A stretch of 64,000 nt of DNA from Candidatus Blackburnbacteria bacterium. Lineage in GTDB: Bacteria > Patescibacteriota > Microgenomatia > UBA8517 > UBA10165. The notes beneath the pieces are model-generated. The model was not told the origin of the DNA. It did not search any database and saw only the letters and a program-made list of their open reading frames with translations. Each line of letters begins with the position of its first letter. Positions within the stretch are counted from its first letter, which is position 1. A program made the translations under genes and the position numbers. This document shows positions 15,215-63,973 of this stretch, one piece after another. The stretch spans positions 614,479 through 678,478 of the forward strand of contig JACPEJ010000001.1 of assembly GCA_016183565.1 (NCBI GenBank). Reading direction: 5' to 3'.

Positions 15215-15250
15215 ATCCTGATCTACTTGTACTACCTGTACTACTTGTGC
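15215..15250 (+). repeat. 9-bp tandem repeat (CTACTTGTA-CTACCTGTA-CTACTTGTG-CTAC) directly after a stop codon
   Basis: The same repeat family, in the same orientation relative to the upstream gene, recurs at 63121-63165. Confidence 0.6.
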
Positions 15251-15263
15251 TACTTTAAAGTGT

Positions 15264-25798: not shown

Positions 25799-27865
25799 AT
25801 GAAGCTTGCTGATCCGGTGGATACTATCCCTTTTGTTGGGCCAGGTTATGCATGGAGATTGAAAAAGCTTGGTGTAAATACTGTTAAGGATCTTTTGTAT
25901 CATATTCCAAATCGCTATCAAGATTTCTCTTTGCTTTCAAATATAAGTACGCTTCAGCCCGGAGAGGAAGTTACAATCCAGGGACAAATACTTTCAATTG
26001 AGAACATTTATACAAGGAAAAGAATAGTTATACAGCGGGCGCAAGTTTCGGATGGAGAAGGAGTTATTGAAGCAACATGGTTTAACCAACCTTTTTTGGT
26101 TAAAAATTTACCTCCTGGGACAATGGTTTCTTTGTCGGGGAAGGTTAAGGCTTCTGGTTCTCGTAGATCTCTTGTTTCGCCGGAGTATGAGAAACTACGA
26201 ACTACTAACTACGCCTTTCCGAAGGAAACATCTTTACTACGAACTGGTGACACTGTTCATACGGGTCGTTTGGTACCTATCTATCCTGAGACTGAGGGTC
26301 TTTCATCAAAGTGGTTGCGCTCAAAAATATCACATACTCTGCCTAGGGTCATTGAGGAAATATCTGAATATCTTCCGGAGGAACTTTTGGCAAGGTTTAA
26401 ACTAATTAGTCTTCAGGATGCTATTAAGAAAGTCCATTACCCAAAGAGTTTAGAAGAAGCTTTGGAGGGAAGGAGAAGATTGGCATTTGACGAGCTTTTG
26501 GAATACCAGTTAAAAAGTTTGATTCGTAAAAACGAATGGAAAGAAAAAAAGCTTTCGCATAAACTTTTGGTAAATCAAGAAAAAATGCTCCAGTTTATAA
26601 ACAGTTTGCCTTTTAATTTAACAGATTCACAGAGAAGATCTGGCCGAGAAATTTTAAGGGATTTAAAAAAGAGCCAACCTATGAACAGGTTATTGGAAGG
26701 AGATGTGGGTTCTGGAAAAACTGTTGTTGCAGCACTTGCTTGTTACATGGCGGTTCAAAACGGATTTCAGGCAACGTTTATGGCTCCAACACAGATTCTT
26801 GCTTCGCAGCATTACGTCACGTTGAATAGTATACTTGGACCTCTTGGTGTGAGTGTAGGGTTGGTTACTGGAGGGAGGCGAAAAGCGAAAAGCGAAAAGC
26901 GAAAAAAAATTGACGTGTTAGTCGGAACTCATGCTCTCGTCCAGAAAAGTGTCACGTTTGAAAACCTCGGATTAGTCGTAATTGACGAGCAACACAGATT
27001 TGGGGTAGCCCAACGAGCCATCCTCACACAAAAGGGCAGTGGTGGATTTTCTCCTCATGTTCTTACAATGACCGCAACCCCAATTCCCAGAACTGTTGCT
27101 TTAACTATTTATGGCGACCTTGATCTTTCAACTCTTGATGAGCTGCCAAAAGGCAGATTAAACATAAAAACGTGGGTTGTTCCACCTCAAAAAAGAGAAG
27201 GTGCTTACGATTGGATCAGAAAGCACGTTAAAGACACTGATGAACAGGCTTTTATAGTTTGTCCACTTATTGAAGAGTCAGAAAAGGAAACCATGAAGGC
27301 AGTTAGGGCAGCAACTGCTGAGTTTGAAATGTTATCTAGGAAAGTTTTTCCGGACCTGCGTTTGGGTCTCCTTCACGGCAAGGTGGGACTTTCGGAAAAG
27401 GATGAGATTATGAGAAAGATGCAAGGGGGAGAGATAGATATTCTTGTTGCAACACCGGTTGTGGAGGTTGGAATTGATATTTCAAATGCGACTATTATGA
27501 TGATTGAGGCAGCAGAAAGGTTTGGTCTTGCACAACTTCATCAATTGCGAGGGAGGGTGGGTCGTGGTGCAAAACAATCTTATTGCCTTCTTTTTTCCGG
27601 ATCATCTTCACCTCAAGTTGTGATGCGTCTTAAGTCACTTGAAAAAACTATGTCAGGACGAGAACTGGCGGAGATTGACTTGAAGATGCGGGGGATGGGG
27701 GAACTTTATGGGACTTTACAGCATGGTTTTCCGGAGTTGAAAATTGCATCTTTTATGGATACTGAACTTATAAAGGCTACTCGTTTCGCTGCCGAGTGGC
27801 TCGTTGAACAGAAGGCAGACCTTTCAAGATTCCTTTCAGGCTCTGAGATCGTGGTGCCCAATTAG
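25799..27865 (+). CDS. recG: ATP-dependent DNA helicase RecG
   Basis: Wedge domain; helicase motifs GDVGSGKT and DEQHRFGV; C-terminal QLRGRVGRG. Contains a (GCGAAAA)4 repeat at 26881-26908. Confidence 0.9.
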   Translation: MKLADPVDTIPFVGPGYAWRLKKLGVNTVKDLLYHIPNRYQDFSLLSNISTLQPGEEVTIQGQILSIENIYTRKRIVIQRAQVSDGEGVIEATWFNQPFLVKNLPPGTMVSLSGKVKASGSRRSLVSPEYEKLRTTNYAFPKETSLLRTGDTVHTGRLVPIYPETEGLSSKWLRSKISHTLPRVIEEISEYLPEELLARFKLISLQDAIKKVHYPKSLEEALEGRRRLAFDELLEYQLKSLIRKNEWKEKKLSHKLLVNQEKMLQFINSLPFNLTDSQRRSGREILRDLKKSQPMNRLLEGDVGSGKTVVAALACYMAVQNGFQATFMAPTQILASQHYVTLNSILGPLGVSVGLVTGGRRKAKSEKRKKIDVLVGTHALVQKSVTFENLGLVVIDEQHRFGVAQRAILTQKGSGGFSPHVLTMTATPIPRTVALTIYGDLDLSTLDELPKGRLNIKTWVVPPQKREGAYDWIRKHVKDTDEQAFIVCPLIEESEKETMKAVRAATAEFEMLSRKVFPDLRLGLLHGKVGLSEKDEIMRKMQGGEIDILVATPVVEVGIDISNATIMMIEAAERFGLAQLHQLRGRVGRGAKQSYCLLFSGSSSPQVVMRLKSLEKTMSGRELAEIDLKMRGMGELYGTLQHGFPELKIASFMDTELIKATRFAAEWLVEQKADLSRFLSGSEIVVPN
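26881..26908. repeat. Heptanucleotide tandem repeat (GCGAAAA) x4 inside the recG CDS
   Basis: gcgaaaagcgaaaagcgaaaagcgaaaa encodes RKAKSEKRK. Confidence 0.85.
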
Positions 27866-27915
27866 TGGAATTACTGAGGTACAAACCTAACTTCGCAGAA
27901 GTCAATGTTCTGGCG

Positions 27916-27948
27916 AAGCCAGGTTCTTATTCCACCTCCCGAGTGGAA
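27916..27948 (+). repeat. REP-like element, copy e (divergent 5' half)
   Basis: GAAGCCAGGTTCTTATTCCACCTCCCGAGTGGAA. Confidence 0.65.
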
Positions 27949-28002
27949 ACATATATCTTCTCAAATTTGACTTCTGTGTTTTTACTATATAGAATACTGC
28001 AA

Positions 28003-28803
28003 ATGGCTGGTCTACAAGAAAGACTACGCCGATGTTTTCTCGGTGAACCACAGCAGCCGCCCATAAAAAGACTTCGCCCTCCGTCTGGCCTTCCCGGCGG
28101 ATCTTCTCTAGCTGATCAAGTACGACTTGCAGTTGAAGCGGCTCTAGCCCAACAAGAAGAATCGCGTAGACAAACAATCGCCGAACAGCAAAGAGTTGTT
28201 GCAGAACAAGAAAGAATCGAGAGAGAAAAAAAAGAGCAAATACATCGTCACGAAGAGGAAATAAAAATTGCCTTGCAAAATGGATTCTGTACTCTGGGTG
28301 TATCAGAAACACTCCGAGATGTACAACAAAATATCTGGAAAGCCGGAGAAGTGACTAGCCAACAACTTTGTCGGATTTCTGTTGATTCGGGAGATATTTG
28401 GGTAGATCTAGTCTTTGAATATCCTACTGCTACAACAGGTGCGTATACAGTACATACCGGTCTTTATTCTAGTGATACTAGATATAGTCCCTCTATTTAC
28501 ATGATGTCGACATTCTTTAGAATTGCACTTAACGCAAAGAGAGAAGATGACCAAATTATCTTAAGATATGGTGAAACAATAGTTACTCCAGACGAAGATG
28601 GGAAAACATTGTTCCAACAGCTGTTACAACAAGATATAGTAGAGGACACTAGGCAGAGATTCCTCAACGGAGAACTACCTTTGTCCAAATTGGTAGCAAA
28701 AGGTCAAATGCAAATATCTGAAGCGGTGTACATTGCAAGAAAGCATCACGAACCGATAGAAGATAAGACTAACACAGGAAATATAGTAAAAAAGTGGGGT
28801 TAA
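28003..28803 (+). CDS. Hypothetical protein (266 aa; ORF open from 27865), coiled-coil N-terminus
   Basis: ORF at about 46% GC. Contains AEQQRVVAEQERIEREKKEQI. No family was recognised. Confidence 0.4.
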   Translation: MAGLQERLRRCFLGEPQQPPIKRLRPPSGLPGGSSLADQVRLAVEAALAQQEESRRQTIAEQQRVVAEQERIEREKKEQIHRHEEEIKIALQNGFCTLGVSETLRDVQQNIWKAGEVTSQQLCRISVDSGDIWVDLVFEYPTATTGAYTVHTGLYSSDTRYSPSIYMMSTFFRIALNAKREDDQIILRYGETIVTPDEDGKTLFQQLLQQDIVEDTRQRFLNGELPLSKLVAKGQMQISEAVYIARKHHEPIEDKTNTGNIVKKWG

Positions 28804-28823
28804 ATTGATTAAATCCTATACGT

Positions 28824-29441
28824 ATGGTCTCATGGGTTGAAGCAGCCAGAAGTGTAATTCGAAGAAGGCGAAAGGAAATACTGCTCTTCCATAACACTCG
28901 TTTTAATAGAAAAGAAAGACACTTTTTGATAACACTTCTTAGACGTGTCGATGATACCAAAAATAACACATTCCCCCACATAGAGTTTTTGGCTCTTCTT
29001 GTTGGTGGCACTGTCACAGGCATTCACAAGAAACCTCCAGAAGAAAGAGATTTAGATATTGTTATTAATTTTTCTGCTGAAACAGGGAGTAGAGAAAGGC
29101 TTTCTTTGATTTGCGAAATAGAACAATGCATCACTCAAGTGCTTTGCGCAGCAGGTTTAGCTTATGTTCAACACTCAGGTACCTTAGGACCAGTATCAAA
29201 CGGATTTGAGAATTATAAAGGATGGGCTTTGATCGAATTGGAGTTCGAAGGTAAAAAACACCCTGTCATGTCATTACTGGACGGCGTGCCAGAACTAAGG
29301 TTTGTTACAACCAAACCCCGGGGGGCAAGACCATTTGACATTATTATCCCAGGTCTCGATTACCTTGATATGGATACTCAATTAGAATTACTTGTCAACG
29401 AAGGCAAAGCCTTTGAAATCCTTTACGACTCCAGAAAGTAA
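28824..29441 (+). CDS. Putative nucleotidyltransferase-fold protein (Pol-beta superfamily signature)
   Basis: LVGG-x13-DLDIVI fits the hG[GS]-x9-13-Dh[DE]h NTase motif. Acidic residues lie downstream. Otherwise unrecognised. Confidence 0.4.
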   Translation: MVSWVEAARSVIRRRRKEILLFHNTRFNRKERHFLITLLRRVDDTKNNTFPHIEFLALLVGGTVTGIHKKPPEERDLDIVINFSAETGSRERLSLICEIEQCITQVLCAAGLAYVQHSGTLGPVSNGFENYKGWALIELEFEGKKHPVMSLLDGVPELRFVTTKPRGARPFDIIIPGLDYLDMDTQLELLVNEGKAFEILYDSRK

Positions 29442-29509
29442 AGGTGAAGCCTTCAACTGCCCTCTCTACTTGTCCCATATACCTTATTTATGCTAAACTT
29501 CAATTTGCA

Positions 29510-29680
29510 ATGGCACCATTACCGAAGAGAAGACATACTAAATCAAGAACGGGCAAAAGACGAGCAAATAAGAAGCTCTTGTTGCCTAATTTATCCGCTT
29601 GTCCTTCATGTAAGAAGCTAAAAAGGCCGCATATGATTTGCCCACATTGTGGTTATTATGGTAAAGGCAATAGGCAATAG
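29510..29680 (+). CDS. rpmF: 50S ribosomal protein L32
   Basis: MAPLPKRRHTKSRTGKRRANKKL...CPSC...CPHCGYYG. Confidence 0.8.
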   Translation: MAPLPKRRHTKSRTGKRRANKKLLLPNLSACPSCKKLKRPHMICPHCGYYGKGNRQ

Positions 29681-29695
29681 GAGCCTATTATTTCC

Positions 29696-30079
29696 ATGAA
29701 GGCAGCTAATGATCCCCGACACCAAAGACGCAGAAATGCTGTACGAGAACTCTTTGCAGTTTCCTTCAATAAAAACCAGACAGTAAGTGATTTGGCTCGG
29801 GAAATTACCAGACAAGAAGATCAACTTGATGGATTGATCTCAATAAATGCTCCAGAATGGCCTCTTGATAAATTGAACAGGGTGGACTTGGCAATTTTAC
29901 AGTTAGCGGTTTACGAGTTGACTATTGAGAAGAAAGAGCCGGTGAAGGTGGTTATTGATGAAGCGGTTGAATTGGCAAAAGAAATGGGTAGTGAGAATTC
30001 TCCTGGTTTTGTAAACGGAGTATTGGGTAGTATTGTTAAGGGGCAGTCTAGTGAGGGGAGTGAGAAACAAAATGGATAG
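29696..30079 (+). CDS. nusB: Transcription antitermination factor NusB
   Basis: RRRNAVRELFAV...LDKLNRVDLAILQLAVYEL...VIDEAVELAKE. Confidence 0.8.
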   Translation: MKAANDPRHQRRRNAVRELFAVSFNKNQTVSDLAREITRQEDQLDGLISINAPEWPLDKLNRVDLAILQLAVYELTIEKKEPVKVVIDEAVELAKEMGSENSPGFVNGVLGSIVKGQSSEGSEKQNG

Positions 30080-45118: not shown

Positions 45119-45796
45119 ATGCATGCTTTTTTGATTGTTGGCAAAACAGAAAAAGAACGACAGGGTGCGGTTGTGGAAATTCTTAAACAGAATAAGGTGG
45201 GGGAGACTTTGAGTCTAACTTCTGACAAAGAGGTATATTCTATCTCGAGTGTTCGTAATTTAAATAAAACCCTGCGGCTAAAGACTTTGGACGAAACCAC
45301 AAGAGCGGTTGTTGTGAAAAATGCTCATAGATTGACAACTGAGGCAGCTAATGCTTTTCTTAAAACTTTAGAAGAGCCTACAGCTCATACAATTCTTATT
45401 TTAACCGCACCTAATCAAGATTCTCTACTTCCTACAATAGTCTCACGTTGTCAGGTGGAAAATTTAGGCAATAGTGCTCCCACTTCGGGCAAGAAGGAGG
45501 AGTTGGAAAAACTTGTGAATTCTTCTATCGGAGAAAGACTTATTGTGGCTGAAAAATTTGATGATCGGGAGATGGCTTTAGAGTTTGTAGTAGAACAAAC
45601 GTTTGCTGCACGAGATGTGATGATAAGTTCGGTAAAAACAGATGGGGCTTCAGCTAACACGGCTTCCTGTCTAAAACTACTTAAAGATCTAAAACAGGCT
45701 AAGGATGATTTAGAATCCAATGTTAATGTAAAGTTGGTTCTTGTGAATCTGCTTCTCCAATATCCTATATTCCATTCCACTCCCGATGTGGAATAG
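45119..45796 (+). CDS. holB: DNA polymerase III delta' subunit (short)
   Basis: NAHRLTTEAANAFLKTLEEPTAHTILILTAPNQDSLLPTIVSRCQ. The C-terminal 8 codons are encoded by REP copy f. Confidence 0.65.
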   Translation: MHAFLIVGKTEKERQGAVVEILKQNKVGETLSLTSDKEVYSISSVRNLNKTLRLKTLDETTRAVVVKNAHRLTTEAANAFLKTLEEPTAHTILILTAPNQDSLLPTIVSRCQVENLGNSAPTSGKKEELEKLVNSSIGERLIVAEKFDDREMALEFVVEQTFAARDVMISSVKTDGASANTASCLKLLKDLKQAKDDLESNVNVKLVLVNLLLQYPIFHSTPDVE

Positions 45797-45837: not shown

Positions 45838-46512
45838 ATGCCTACTCGGATAATACCTCTCGTAAACGGTGAGTTTTACCATCTTTTTAATCGAGGTGTG
45901 GCGCATCAACCAATTTTTTCTACTAACAGGGATTACCAAAAGTTTTTACTCCCTCTACAATACTATCAGTTACAAACACCACCTGTTAAGCTGTCTCGAT
46001 TTATGCAATTACAAAAGGATGAAAAGGAATACTTACTCAAAGAACTCGAGACGAAGGGAAAGAAATTAGTAAATCTTATCTGCTTTGTTCTAATGCCAAA
46101 TCACTTCCATGCTCTTGCACAACAATCAGTTAACAATGGTATTTCTACTTTTATAAAGAGAGCTACTGATAGCTATGCCCGTTATTTCAACACCAAACAT
46201 GAACGTGTTGGTCCTTTGTTTCAGGGAGCATTTAAGGCGGTAAGAATTACAACGGTTGAGCAATTACTTCATGTGTCAAGATATATACACCTGAATCCAC
46301 TGGTTTCTTTTGTTGTGCGTCAAGAAAACTTCATCCAATATCAGTGGTCATCGCTCCAATACTTCTTACAAGAAAACATTTCTCAGAATATAGTTGACCC
46401 TACTCCTATACTCCAAAATTTCAGTTCTAAGGAAGAATATAAGAAGTTTATATTAGACCACGCTGAATACGCAAAGGAGTTGGAGAAAATTAAGCACATG
46501 GTGATTGATTAA
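45838..46512 (+). mobile_element. REP-associated tyrosine transposase (RAYT; IS200/IS605-like Y1 HUH transposase)
   Basis: YHLFNRGV ... LMPNHFHAL (HUH motif) ... SRYIHLNPL (catalytic Tyr). The gene is flanked on both sides by REP-like elements in opposite orientation. Confidence 0.75.
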
Positions 46513-46513
46513 T

Positions 46514-46549
46514 ACCGATGTGCAAAGCTATTCCACTCCCGATGTGGAA
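46514..46549 (+). repeat. REP-like element, copy g, immediately 3' of the RAYT stop
   Basis: ACCGATGTGCAAAGCTATTCCACTCCCGATGTGGAA. Confidence 0.8.
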
Positions 46550-46676
46550 AGTTTGTGGAAAGTTGCTTTGGGGGCCAGGTTTTTAACCTTCGCTAAGTTT
46601 GCAAAGACTCGCATATCAAGCTATAATTATAGTTAGGAAATGGGGTTTTAAAAGCCCTATTTTTCGTGTTTAGACA

Positions 46677-63120: not shown

Positions 63121-63165
63121 TCAAAGGTAGCACAGGTAGTACAGGTAGTACAAGTAGTATAGGGG
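63121..63165 (-). repeat. 9-bp tandem repeat (GGTAGCACA-GGTAGTACA-GGTAGTACA-AGTAGTATA), second copy of the family seen at 15215-15250
   Basis: On the minus strand it reads CTACTTGTACTACCTGTACTACCTGTGCTAC, directly downstream of the rluA stop. Confidence 0.6.
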
Positions 63166-63220: not shown

Positions 63221-63973
63221 CTAGAGCAGTAAGACATCCTCTAGTTCTTTGGGTAATGGTGCTTCTATGGTTATGTGTTTTTCAGTTACCGGGTGGGTGA
63301 ACGTAAGGCTTTTGGCGTGCAGGAAGAGCCTTGGGCACCATTCTCTGTCTCGTCTTGCGGTTTTTCTCCCTGCATAAAGTATATCTCCTACCACAGGATG
63401 ACCAATGTGTTTTAGGTGAACTCTGATCTGGTGAGTTCGGCCGGTTTTTGGATAGAGCTCAAGCAGGGAAAGCGAGGTTGTAGGTTGTAGGTTGTAGGTT
63501 GTAGGTTGTAGGTTGTAGGTTGTAGAAATTTGGCTTGCCAGTTGATTGATCAACGACTTGACTATGTACAGTGTTTTTGCCTCTCGCCCGTCTTTCAATA
63601 CACCAAATCTTGTTCTTTTCCAAGGAAGCCGACCGACAGGCGCGTTGATTGTCCCTTCAGTTGGTTCTACTCTGCCATGAACTAACGCTACATAGCCCTT
63701 CTCTACTCCCCGTTCTTTAAACTGCTTTTGCAAATTTTCAAAAACCTCCGGAGTTTTAGCAATAAGCAATACGCCGCTTGTTTCTTTGTCTAATCTGTGG
63801 ACTAGCCCGTTTCGCATTTCAAAGTCATGTGCTAGTGGAAAATTGAAATTCGTATCAATCCAATCCTGAAGGGTTTCATCCTCTGTCGCAAAACCTCGGT
63901 TTACAACCATTCCGGAGGGCTTGTTAATAGCAAGTAGATAGTCGTCTTCAAACAATATATGTGGTTGAATCAT
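63221..63973 (-). CDS. RluA-family pseudouridine synthase carrying an in-frame heptanucleotide-repeat insertion
   Basis: ETSGVLLIAKT, HQIRVHLKHIGHPVVGD. The inserted peptide TTYNLQPTTYNLQPTT is encoded by (GGTTGTA)8 at 63475-63530. Confidence 0.75.
   Translation of the reverse strand: MIQPHILFEDDYLLAINKPSGMVVNRGFATEDETLQDWIDTNFNFPLAHDFEMRNGLVHRLDKETSGVLLIAKTPEVFENLQKQFKERGVEKGYVALVHGRVEPTEGTINAPVGRLPWKRTRFGVLKDGREAKTLYIVKSLINQLASQISTTYNLQPTTYNLQPTTSLSLLELYPKTGRTHQIRVHLKHIGHPVVGDILYAGRKTARRDREWCPRLFLHAKSLTFTHPVTEKHITIEAPLPKELEDVLLL
63475..63530. repeat. Heptanucleotide tandem repeat (GGTTGTA) x8 inside the rluA CDS
   Basis: Seen directly: ggttgtaggttgtaggttgtagg... Confidence 0.9.

Follow-up and report, generated by a model that had tools for sequence, protein, structure and literature searches.

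A two-gene insertion between recG and rpmF

We analysed a 64,000-nt stretch of DNA (hereafter the window, with positions counted from its first nucleotide) from a metagenome-assembled genome of Candidatus Blackburnbacteria, which belongs to the Microgenomates group of the Patescibacteria, or candidate phyla radiation (CPR). The subject of this work is a pair of forward-strand genes in this window, gene A (28003-28803, 266 aa) and gene B (28824-29441, 205 aa), which are separated by a gap of 20 nt and the second of which encodes a candidate divergent Pol-beta-type nucleotidyltransferase (NTase). These coordinates, lengths and the gap, first given in a preliminary description of the window made from the sequence without database searches, were all reproduced in our list of open reading frames (ORFs). 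The codons for the invariant block of protein B, from G61 to D78, lie at 29004-29057 on the forward strand, as established from the family alignment, a column check and direct reading of the sequence.

Both A and B are genuine coding genes, since their in-frame codon log-likelihoods (-3.959 and -3.952, respectively) match the mean of the 50 window genes used as reference (-3.955, standard deviation 0.055) and intact homologues of each, 25-45% identical, are found in other contigs. Read off-frame, the two genes score about -4.3 to -4.6. A has a GC content of 41.7% and B one of 40.5%, the figure for the whole window being 41.5%; the value of about 46% previously given for A applies to its first ~400 nt only (45-47%) and not to the gene overall. 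The 266-aa version of A is favoured by the NCBI call and by N-terminal alignment with the homologue on contig L077, which also backs the start codon. A public Logan gene call of the identical locus (L084) instead begins A at a GTG overlapping the recG stop codon and gives a 312-aa product, read through the terminator-like hairpin and the repeat described below.

The pair is flanked by housekeeping genes that lie outside the cassette, with recG upstream (25799-27865, forward strand) and rpmF, encoding ribosomal protein L32, beginning 68 nt past B (29510-29680, forward strand), so that the reported site between recG and the rpmF-nusB-rnc block was reproduced. Using RecG as a probe, we recovered 76 loci from species-representative genomes. 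In five Microgenomates-like relatives (L001-L004 and L060, with RecG 46-57% identical) rpmF directly follows recG, the nusB-rnc(-rpsP) order is preserved downstream, and recG and nusB are 218-687 nt apart, compared to 1831 nt in this genome. Because rpmF directly follows recG in these relatives, the REP hairpin, the promoter-like site, A and B, together ~1.6 kb, are extra DNA in this genome, that is, an insertion, as had been proposed for a cassette in a housekeeping region. Indeed, tblastn of A and B against the 76 recG loci returned no match, and the pair is not a lineage-wide housekeeping operon, being absent at this locus in the five closest genomes found. The closest RecG (57%) comes from a contig labelled 'uncultured Pseudomonadales' (L001, CAYXSR010000011.1), which has the same recG-rpmF-nusB-rnc-rpsP synteny and, beyond the block, an opposite-strand gene set resembling that of this CPR genome; the taxonomic label of this bin or contig looks wrong.

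The spacer between recG and A measures 137 nt and holds three features on the forward strand. Directly past recG lies a terminator-like hairpin with a T-rich tail (27909-27923), a pattern match from a consensus scan of positions 27500-29900, in which it is the sole such site; the same scan found none between B and rpmF. It is followed by a hairpin resembling a repetitive extragenic palindrome (REP), TATTCCACCTCCCGAGTGGAA (27928-27948, repeat family D2), one of eight copies in the window, and the REP copy that had been noted just upstream of the cassette is therefore real. A promoter-like TTGACT-17-TAGAAT sequence (27967-27995), with 10 of 12 consensus matches, ends 7 nt before the ATG of A, with the caveat that the count of promoter-like sites across the region is not above shuffled expectation. 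The position of this site suggests a leaderless or near-leaderless transcript for A. Neither A nor B is preceded by a visible Shine-Dalgarno sequence. Together with a TAGAAT lying 7 nt from the ATG of A, this would suggest, by pattern matching only, leaderless or Shine-Dalgarno-independent initiation. Further out, the order is a PBP1-like gene, a tRNA-synthetase-like gene and recG upstream, and rpmF, nusB, rnc, rpsP and a KH-domain gene downstream, followed by an opposite-strand pilM/N/O-like set assigned by synteny. Among these flanking genes, Pfam domains are on record, in the identical locus L084, for recG, NusB, RNase III, S16 and the KH protein only.

A rare family with an obligatory pairing

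We searched large sequence collections with both products. A word-indexed search with single sequences in 5.8 billion clusters returned only the self match for A and for B. An exhaustive HMMER scan for B in 1.84 billion cluster representatives turned up, besides a spurious repeat protein, six true relatives with 33-44% identity (P0003-P0008), and a profile search added a seventh relative (P0010). The B family thus amounts to ~8 clusters among ~15 billion proteins, and the A-B family, so far known from a few ultra-small CPR bacteria, is extremely rare.

In every contig recovered (L077, L078, L079, L080, L081/L082 and L083), the gene directly upstream of B is a homologue of A and has the same orientation. 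In the first three compared, BLASTP against the A of the window gave E-values of 4e-32, 5e-9 and 6e-8, and the values for L081 and L080 were 2e-25 and 1e-9. The partner comes first in all seven loci, at a spacing of +20 nt in the window and of +11, -8, +10, -14, +6 and +11 nt in the others. The pairing of A and B is therefore obligatory, and the spacing is tight.

The surroundings of the pair vary. It lies between rplS and dnaE in L078, and near glycosyltransferases in L080, where a Y1 transposase gene is found 3.4 kb away. In L077 and L081/L082 it lies in a Gram-positive-type type IV secretion system (T4SS) locus near dnaN/dnaA, which comprises T4SS pilins, PrgI, a VirB4/TraG-like protein, SLT and an M23 peptidase. 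There the pair occupies the same slot beside PrgI-VirB4 in opposite orientation (L077:6915-8389 and L081:9140-10549), and the VirB4 proteins of the two contigs are 65% identical whereas their DnaN proteins are only 34.5% identical. This degree of VirB4 identity may point to an element that can be transferred, or to a hot spot for insertion. As an aside, the VirB4/TraG-like ATPase gene at L081:3544-7191 is interrupted by an intein that includes a LAGLIDADG domain (Pfam Intein_splicing and LAGLIDADG_3).

These contexts raise the question of whether A-B might be an accessory of a CPR Gram-positive-type T4SS or conjugation locus, acting as cargo or as a maintenance or processing factor in DNA transfer or at the episymbiotic interface, with the window copy having been relocated. 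The recurrence of the pair between a large hypothetical gene and PrgI-VirB4 despite such divergent DnaN proteins speaks for this idea, as does the identity of VirB4, which is far above that of DnaN and fits a transferable element. However, no T4SS gene lies near the pair in the window, L078, L080 or L079, and the window has no T4SS homologue at all; moreover, L077 and L081 have neither the same flanking genes nor the same orientation of the pair. Since addiction modules are the usual cargo of conjugative elements, a T4SS association would in any case overlap with the toxin-antitoxin reading that we prefer below, and as a separate explanation we regard it as quite unlikely.

Protein B carries a conserved Pol-beta-like block

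An alignment of seven full-length members of the B family (182-209 aa) contains 22 invariant columns, which cluster in the segment GG-x3-[GC]-[IV]-H-x-K-[PS]-x3-[RQ]-D-[IL]-D-[IV]-x-I-[ND]-[FL]-S. This cluster includes G61, G62, H68, K70, D76, D78, I81 and S84, and G61, G62, H68, K70, D76 and D78 are found in 7/7 members, making GG-x5-H-x-K-x5-DxD the most conserved block of the family. In the window protein the corresponding sequence is LVGG-TVTGIHKKPPEER-DLDIVI at residues 59-80, which fits the pattern hG[GS]-x13-DhDh and is the only instance of it among 50 window proteins (16.8 k residues). Six to seven hydrophobic residues precede the GG (for example FLALLVGG), and D76-L-D78-IVI lies on a second hydrophobic stretch after a 13-residue spacer, which is the hhhhG[GS]-x13-DhDhhh arrangement of Pol-beta NTases. 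The Pol-beta-type motif of the preliminary description is thus present, and it is invariant across the family. The G61/G62...H68/K70...D76/D78 block may represent a nucleotide- or metal-binding site, and two acidic positions conserved later in the protein, E138 (Glu in six members and Asp in the seventh) and D172 (Asp in five members and Glu in the other two), are candidates for a third metal ligand.

Comparisons with Pfam point in the same direction. The best match of four of the eight B members falls in the NTase clan, with E-values of 0.023 for Polbeta, 0.035 and 0.11 for NTP_transf_2 and 0.076 for the MTPAP-like palm domain. Three of these four matches start before the GG and span GG...DxD, and the Polbeta match starts at residue 70 and covers DxD onward; the other Pfam matches of B members are unrelated one-offs. 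In addition, when the 3854 ORFs of all the loci fetched were searched with the B profile, the best match outside the family was a DUF6036 NTase (L072:12730-13170; Pfam 3.3e-9), which aligns with B in register and with identical GG-x5-H-x7-DxD spacing. This match would be supportive by virtue of the identity of the protein found rather than of its score. For A and B alike, PADLOC, NCBIfam, PHROGs and Pfam gave nothing above threshold, in line with the earlier remark that neither protein matches a family that could be named.

Protein A is a soluble partner of novel sequence

Protein A has a Pro-rich N-terminus followed by a long helix (residues 36-92), for which the predicted local distance difference test (pLDDT) score is 83-94 over residues 41-80. 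Both are missing from L079 and L080, two of the six aligned A members, and because of this an N-terminal helix or coiled coil is not a defining feature of the A family; of the coiled-coil N-terminus reported before, the long helix is found in this genome whereas its conservation is not. The conserved part of A is a core of ~170-190 residues. It consists of a helix, LQxxFxRLGVxxxLxDVQxNIWxGG, with an invariant Trp-x-x-Gly, a beta-rich middle with FxYPxAT.G and PxIY, and a C-terminal segment, IVEDxxQRxLxGxLPxSKLVAxGQ, the family form of which is IxEDxxQRxxxGxLPxSKLVxxGQ.

We detected no transmembrane segment, and A is therefore soluble. Single sequences and profiles of A gave no match in Pfam, NCBIfam, PADLOC, PHROGs or PDB. 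Weak matches to DisA, MerR and ArsR, including an ArsR-like match at the C-terminus (E=0.45), were dropped, as they were not reproduced with a larger alignment. The six-member A alignment likewise showed no similarity to the partner of Campylobacter VapD or to the partner of the DUF6036 NTase, both of which are introduced below.

Comparison with known two-gene systems

Several described systems combine an NTase, or a protein of similar size, with a small partner. In AbiE and MenAT the toxin is the DUF1814 NTase, encoded downstream, and the protein encoded upstream neutralises it (PMC3985639, PMC7450476, PMC11375011). MenT toxins modify the acceptor ends of tRNAs (PMC7450476, PMC10435456, PMC11375011), and AbiE is carried on an integrative and conjugative element (PMC3985639). 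The A-B pair is like these systems in being bicistronic, with the partner first, an NTase-like protein second and stop and start codons that often overlap or nearly touch. It also shares the hG[GS]...DhD signature with GG rather than GS, and a patchy distribution in which modules can sit on or near conjugative elements. However, no B member matches PF08843 (DUF1814) at E<=10 and PADLOC gives no AbiE match. The spacer is x13 in B and x15 in DUF1814, B is ~80-100 residues shorter than the DUF1814 toxins, and it lacks their conserved Arg four residues before DxD, the residue next to DxD (R75) being R in three members and Q in four. Motifs III (KLxAaxxR) and IV (+DxxD) of DUF1814 (PMC3985639) are absent from all seven B members in a regular-expression scan. 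On the partner side, the antitoxins of AbiE and MenAT differ from A in that Pfam and NCBIfam detect neither a winged helix-turn-helix at the N-terminus nor a COG5340/COG4861 domain in the six A members. An AbiEii fold or family, one of the assignments suggested earlier, is thus not borne out.

In HepT/MntA the NTase is the antitoxin, and it polyadenylylates the HEPN toxin (PMC7641770). This system, the source of the idea that an NTase may chemically modify its partner, is also a two-gene module, and the B family gives weak matches to the MNT families NTP_transf_2 (two members) and Polbeta (one member). These matches remain well short of the models, the best scores being 14.9 bits (cut-off 21) and 15.3 bits (cut-off 26.9), whereas a true MNT-HEPN protein in L012 scores 3e-11. 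The A family has no conserved Rx4-6H motif and no HEPN match in Pfam, and with PADLOC and Pfam equally silent the suggested MNT-HEPN assignment falls away.

The preliminary description had also likened the motif of B to that of SMODS/CD-NTase-like NTases, which would place the pair near the cyclic-oligonucleotide-based antiphage signalling systems (CBASS), where A would be an effector switched on by a second-messenger nucleotide that B makes. The generic logic of an NTase next to a partner is all that this idea shares with the locus. Neither A nor B has a CD-NTase or SMODS match in PADLOC or Pfam, and known CD-NTases are much longer than 182-209 aa. A lacks a transmembrane segment and any nuclease, phospholipase, TIR, SAVED or other effector domain. 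Furthermore, an order with the NTase in second place and start and stop codons that frequently overlap is what toxin-antitoxin pairs typically show. We consider a CBASS-like function extremely improbable, and the SMODS/CD-NTase label does not hold.

A different kind of resemblance links B to VapD, and with it the proposal that B is an N-terminally extended VapD/Cas2-like protein of ferredoxin fold and that A-B is a toxin-antitoxin pair of the VapXD kind. Among 177,635 sequences, the top PDB profile match of B is the VapD of Campylobacter jejuni (9kan_A, E=0.12-0.25), in which a beta-alpha-beta unit aligns (B residues 79-128 with VapD 7-55, with common 'AINF' and 'Q-x-[ST]-G' strands). By hhalign the match to the single VapD sequence has P=1.1e-4 (Prob 56%) and a score above all 1001 random ORFs of the null set, and VapD is likewise encoded downstream of a small partner. 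Nevertheless, being the best of so many sequences, with an E-value of ~0.3 by extrapolation of the null tail, the match is not significant, and it fell to P=5.4e-4 (Prob 30%) when a four-sequence VapD profile was used in place of the one protein. The alignment is limited to the first beta-alpha-beta unit, over 46-48 columns, and no B member has a Cas2/VapD match in Pfam. In Cas2 and VapD the catalytic Asp stands at the end of strand beta1; in the alignment this Asp (FDL) lies opposite the invariant Ser84 of B. The match also leaves unexplained the GG...H.K...DxD block of B (residues 61-78), which is more conserved and absent in VapD. An identity with VapD thus seems improbable for the pair.

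The genomic setting of VapD offers a further parallel, in that Campylobacter vapXD adjoins T4SS pilin genes on conjugative plasmids just as A-B is found beside PrgI/VirB4, and by analogy this favours a T4SS link. On two pTet-like Campylobacter plasmids (L166:369-1060 and L167:287-987), vapD and an overlapping 107-aa upstream gene adjoin TrbC/VirB2, with L166 typed by MOB-suite as conjugative and L167 as mobilizable only.

The small NTases of the DUF6036, DUF2204 and ANT(2'') kind (PF19502, PF09970 and PF10706) share with B an identical GG-x5-H-x7-DxD spacing, hydrophobic strands and small size, and the DUF6036 gene of L072 also has a small overlapping upstream ORF. The likeness of B to DUF6036 extends over just ~30-37 residues, leaving the other ~120 residues of the protein unaligned, and it lacks significance (P=0.0035-0.007, the higher value for the single L072 sequence); no B member reaches any of the three Pfam models. 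If B were nevertheless a small-molecule NTase of the ANT(2'')/Lnu/DUF6036 kind, it would modify an antibiotic or metabolite, and A would be accessory or regulatory. The size of 182-209 aa and the motif spacing agree with this, and the L072 protein itself also scores against the Pfam models Aminoglyc_resit and DUF2204. However, resistance NTases normally stand alone whereas B has an obligatory partner, no B member matches Aminoglyc_resit, DUF6036 or DUF2204, and the DUF6036 example has its own overlapping upstream ORF in a region that appears toxin-antitoxin-island-like by eye. We therefore rate this possibility as very improbable. The L072 region itself (L072:11796-13170, Anaerolineales) also lies between recG and nusB and contains paired ORFs of 97 and 95 aa followed by an 80-aa ORF overlapping the DUF6036 NTase gene; it looks, by eye, like a small toxin-antitoxin island in which the 97- and 95-aa ORFs are RelE/ParE-like.

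A possible toxin-antitoxin or abortive-infection module

Taken together, the reading that we tentatively prefer, at a confidence somewhat short of even, is that A-B is a rare new NTase-plus-partner module with toxin-antitoxin or abortive-infection logic. General traits of toxin-antitoxin systems are present, namely a tight two-gene operon, a patchy distribution and variable contexts, and the pair has transcription signals of its own in the form of pattern matches, a promoter-like site before A and a terminator-like hairpin past recG. Gene organisation and patchy distribution would suggest a defence or toxin-antitoxin role. We would say that A-B works like the NTase toxin-antitoxin modules rather than that it is a member of them, because no DUF1814, HEPN or CD-NTase model matches and DUF1814 motifs III and IV are absent.

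In the mechanism that we propose, A and B would form a small autonomous accessory operon dropped between recG and rpmF. B would most probably be a highly divergent member of the Pol-beta NTase superfamily, with the invariant GG and DxD placed on two hydrophobic strands, His68 and Lys70 in the connecting loop, and E138 or D172 serving as third metal ligand, and it may take a nucleotide from an NTP and attach it to a macromolecular target. A, the product of the first gene, would be the cognate partner of B, to which it is coupled tightly or through translation, and it would restrain B, sense for it or be modified by it. The logic could be that of AbiE/MenAT, with an NTase toxin and an upstream antitoxin, or, with roles reversed, that of HepT/MntA; because of the gene order we prefer the version in which B, the NTase, is toxic and A is either its antagonist or its sensor. 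The module may stabilise its host DNA or abort phage infection. We only infer the NTase fold, catalysis, toxicity, the identity of the toxin and any defence role.

Several results weigh against this reading, first of all with respect to the enzyme. All similarity of B to known families is sub-threshold, and the Pfam NTase matches reach 13-15 bits where the gathering scores of the relevant families are 21-27 bits. Against a 78-sequence profile of relatives of the L072 ORF, hhalign gives P=0.0035 with a Prob of only 9% over 37 columns. DUF6036 ranks first among the 1001 ORFs of the null set with a score of 22.9, barely over the random ORFs that follow (22.5, 22.2 and 22.1), so that it sits at the top of a continuous tail and is no outlier. 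Nothing past ~35-80 residues around the motif aligns to any NTase, and PDB profile searches with B up to E=10 found no NTase. The competing VapD match is about as weak as the NTase matches and overlaps part of the same region of B. The AlphaFold single-sequence models, at pLDDT values of 38 for B and 48 for A, are too poor to judge a fold by, and searches with them gave noise.

Such results could also mean that the conserved block is no NTase active site, that A and B are lineage-specific proteins of some other function, for instance a structural or regulatory one, and that the NTase matches reflect by chance a short and common GG...DxD pattern flanked by hydrophobic strands. What makes this unlikely in our view is that the weak matches converge on one Pfam clan, with three NTase families and an independent DUF6036 protein; most of them cross GG...DxD, and the DUF6036 alignment has GG, H and DxD in register. 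The motif residues are, moreover, the invariant core of the B family, in a pattern found in one of 50 window proteins. The NTase identity of the preliminary description thus stands as far as the invariant GG...DxD and the recurrent matches to Pol-beta NTase families are concerned, whereas no match is significant (Pfam E-values of 0.023-0.11). On balance, we judge an NTase fold for B to be probable, a fold that is neither NTase nor VapD-like somewhat unlikely, and a VapD-like fold improbable.

With respect to the role of the module, the same side of the balance includes the nature of A, in which we detected no helix-turn-helix, HEPN or other antitoxin or effector domain, and whose family has isoelectric points of 4.9-7.8, untypical of a DNA-binding repressor. 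No conserved operator palindrome was found upstream of A in five loci. It also includes the genomic evidence, since plasmid and phage sequences yielded no tblastn match to B, the B alignment found nothing in degenerate-pattern scans of JGI metagenome contigs and IMG/VR, and the A alignment found nothing in IMG/VR. A recognisable defence island was seen in none of the contexts recovered. Finally, no direct or inverted repeats or target-site duplications of at least 8 nt were found at the insertion borders, and the GC content and codon usage of the cassette are host-like, so that nothing points directly to recent mobility. The data accordingly do not support an insertion bounded by REPs or resembling a transposon, recent horizontal transfer is rejected on composition, and we conclude that the insertion is not recent.

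A more specific version of the preferred reading would be a two-component system restricted to CPR/Patescibacteria, in which a new branch of Pol-beta-like NTases defined by GG-x5-H-x-K-x5-DxD and a partner of novel fold act together, the enzyme nucleotidylylates the partner or an RNA, and the link to T4SS is ancestral. This version is doubtful. If true, it would represent a new class of addiction or abortive-infection system, or a T4SS-coupled nucleotide transfer, in a group where few accessory systems have been recognised.

CPR/Patescibacteria have tiny genomes with many genes of no recognisable function. An NTase-like module that is strictly paired and looks mobile, with a partner of unknown fold, would extend the repertoire of NTase toxin-antitoxin and abortive-infection systems exemplified by AbiE/MenT and HepT/MntA, and A-B could inform how episymbionts stabilise DNA or resist phages. 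The recurrence of the pair beside a PrgI/VirB4 secretion locus is a concrete functional lead. The immediate impact is modest, because the family comprises only ~8 clusters, its similarity to known proteins is sub-threshold and its hosts are uncultured.

Repeats in the window

The REP-like hairpins belong to a genuine REP/RAYT (REP-associated tyrosine transposase) system. Copies are found at 2098, 10459, 15612, 25616, 27928, 45774-45794, 46530-46550 and 54652, and those at 45774-45794 and 46530-46550 bracket on both sides the gene for a 224-aa Y1/IS200-like transposase (45838-46512, forward strand; PF01797, E=9.5e-8), to which the Y1 transposase near A-B in L080 is 35% identical. REP copies fill several intergenic gaps, including one before recG, and none lies downstream of the cassette. 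Because of this spread, the adjacency of REP and cassette, which the preliminary description had presented as a feature of the locus, looks incidental.

Two other repeats were seen in the window. Close to the end of the window (63475-63525), the heptamer AGGTTGT forms a perfect tandem array. An inverted pair of 34 nt, CTACTTGTACTACCTGTACTACTTGTGCTACTTT (15223-15256 and 63124-63157, 94% complementary, 48 kb apart), is probably repetitive coding sequence.

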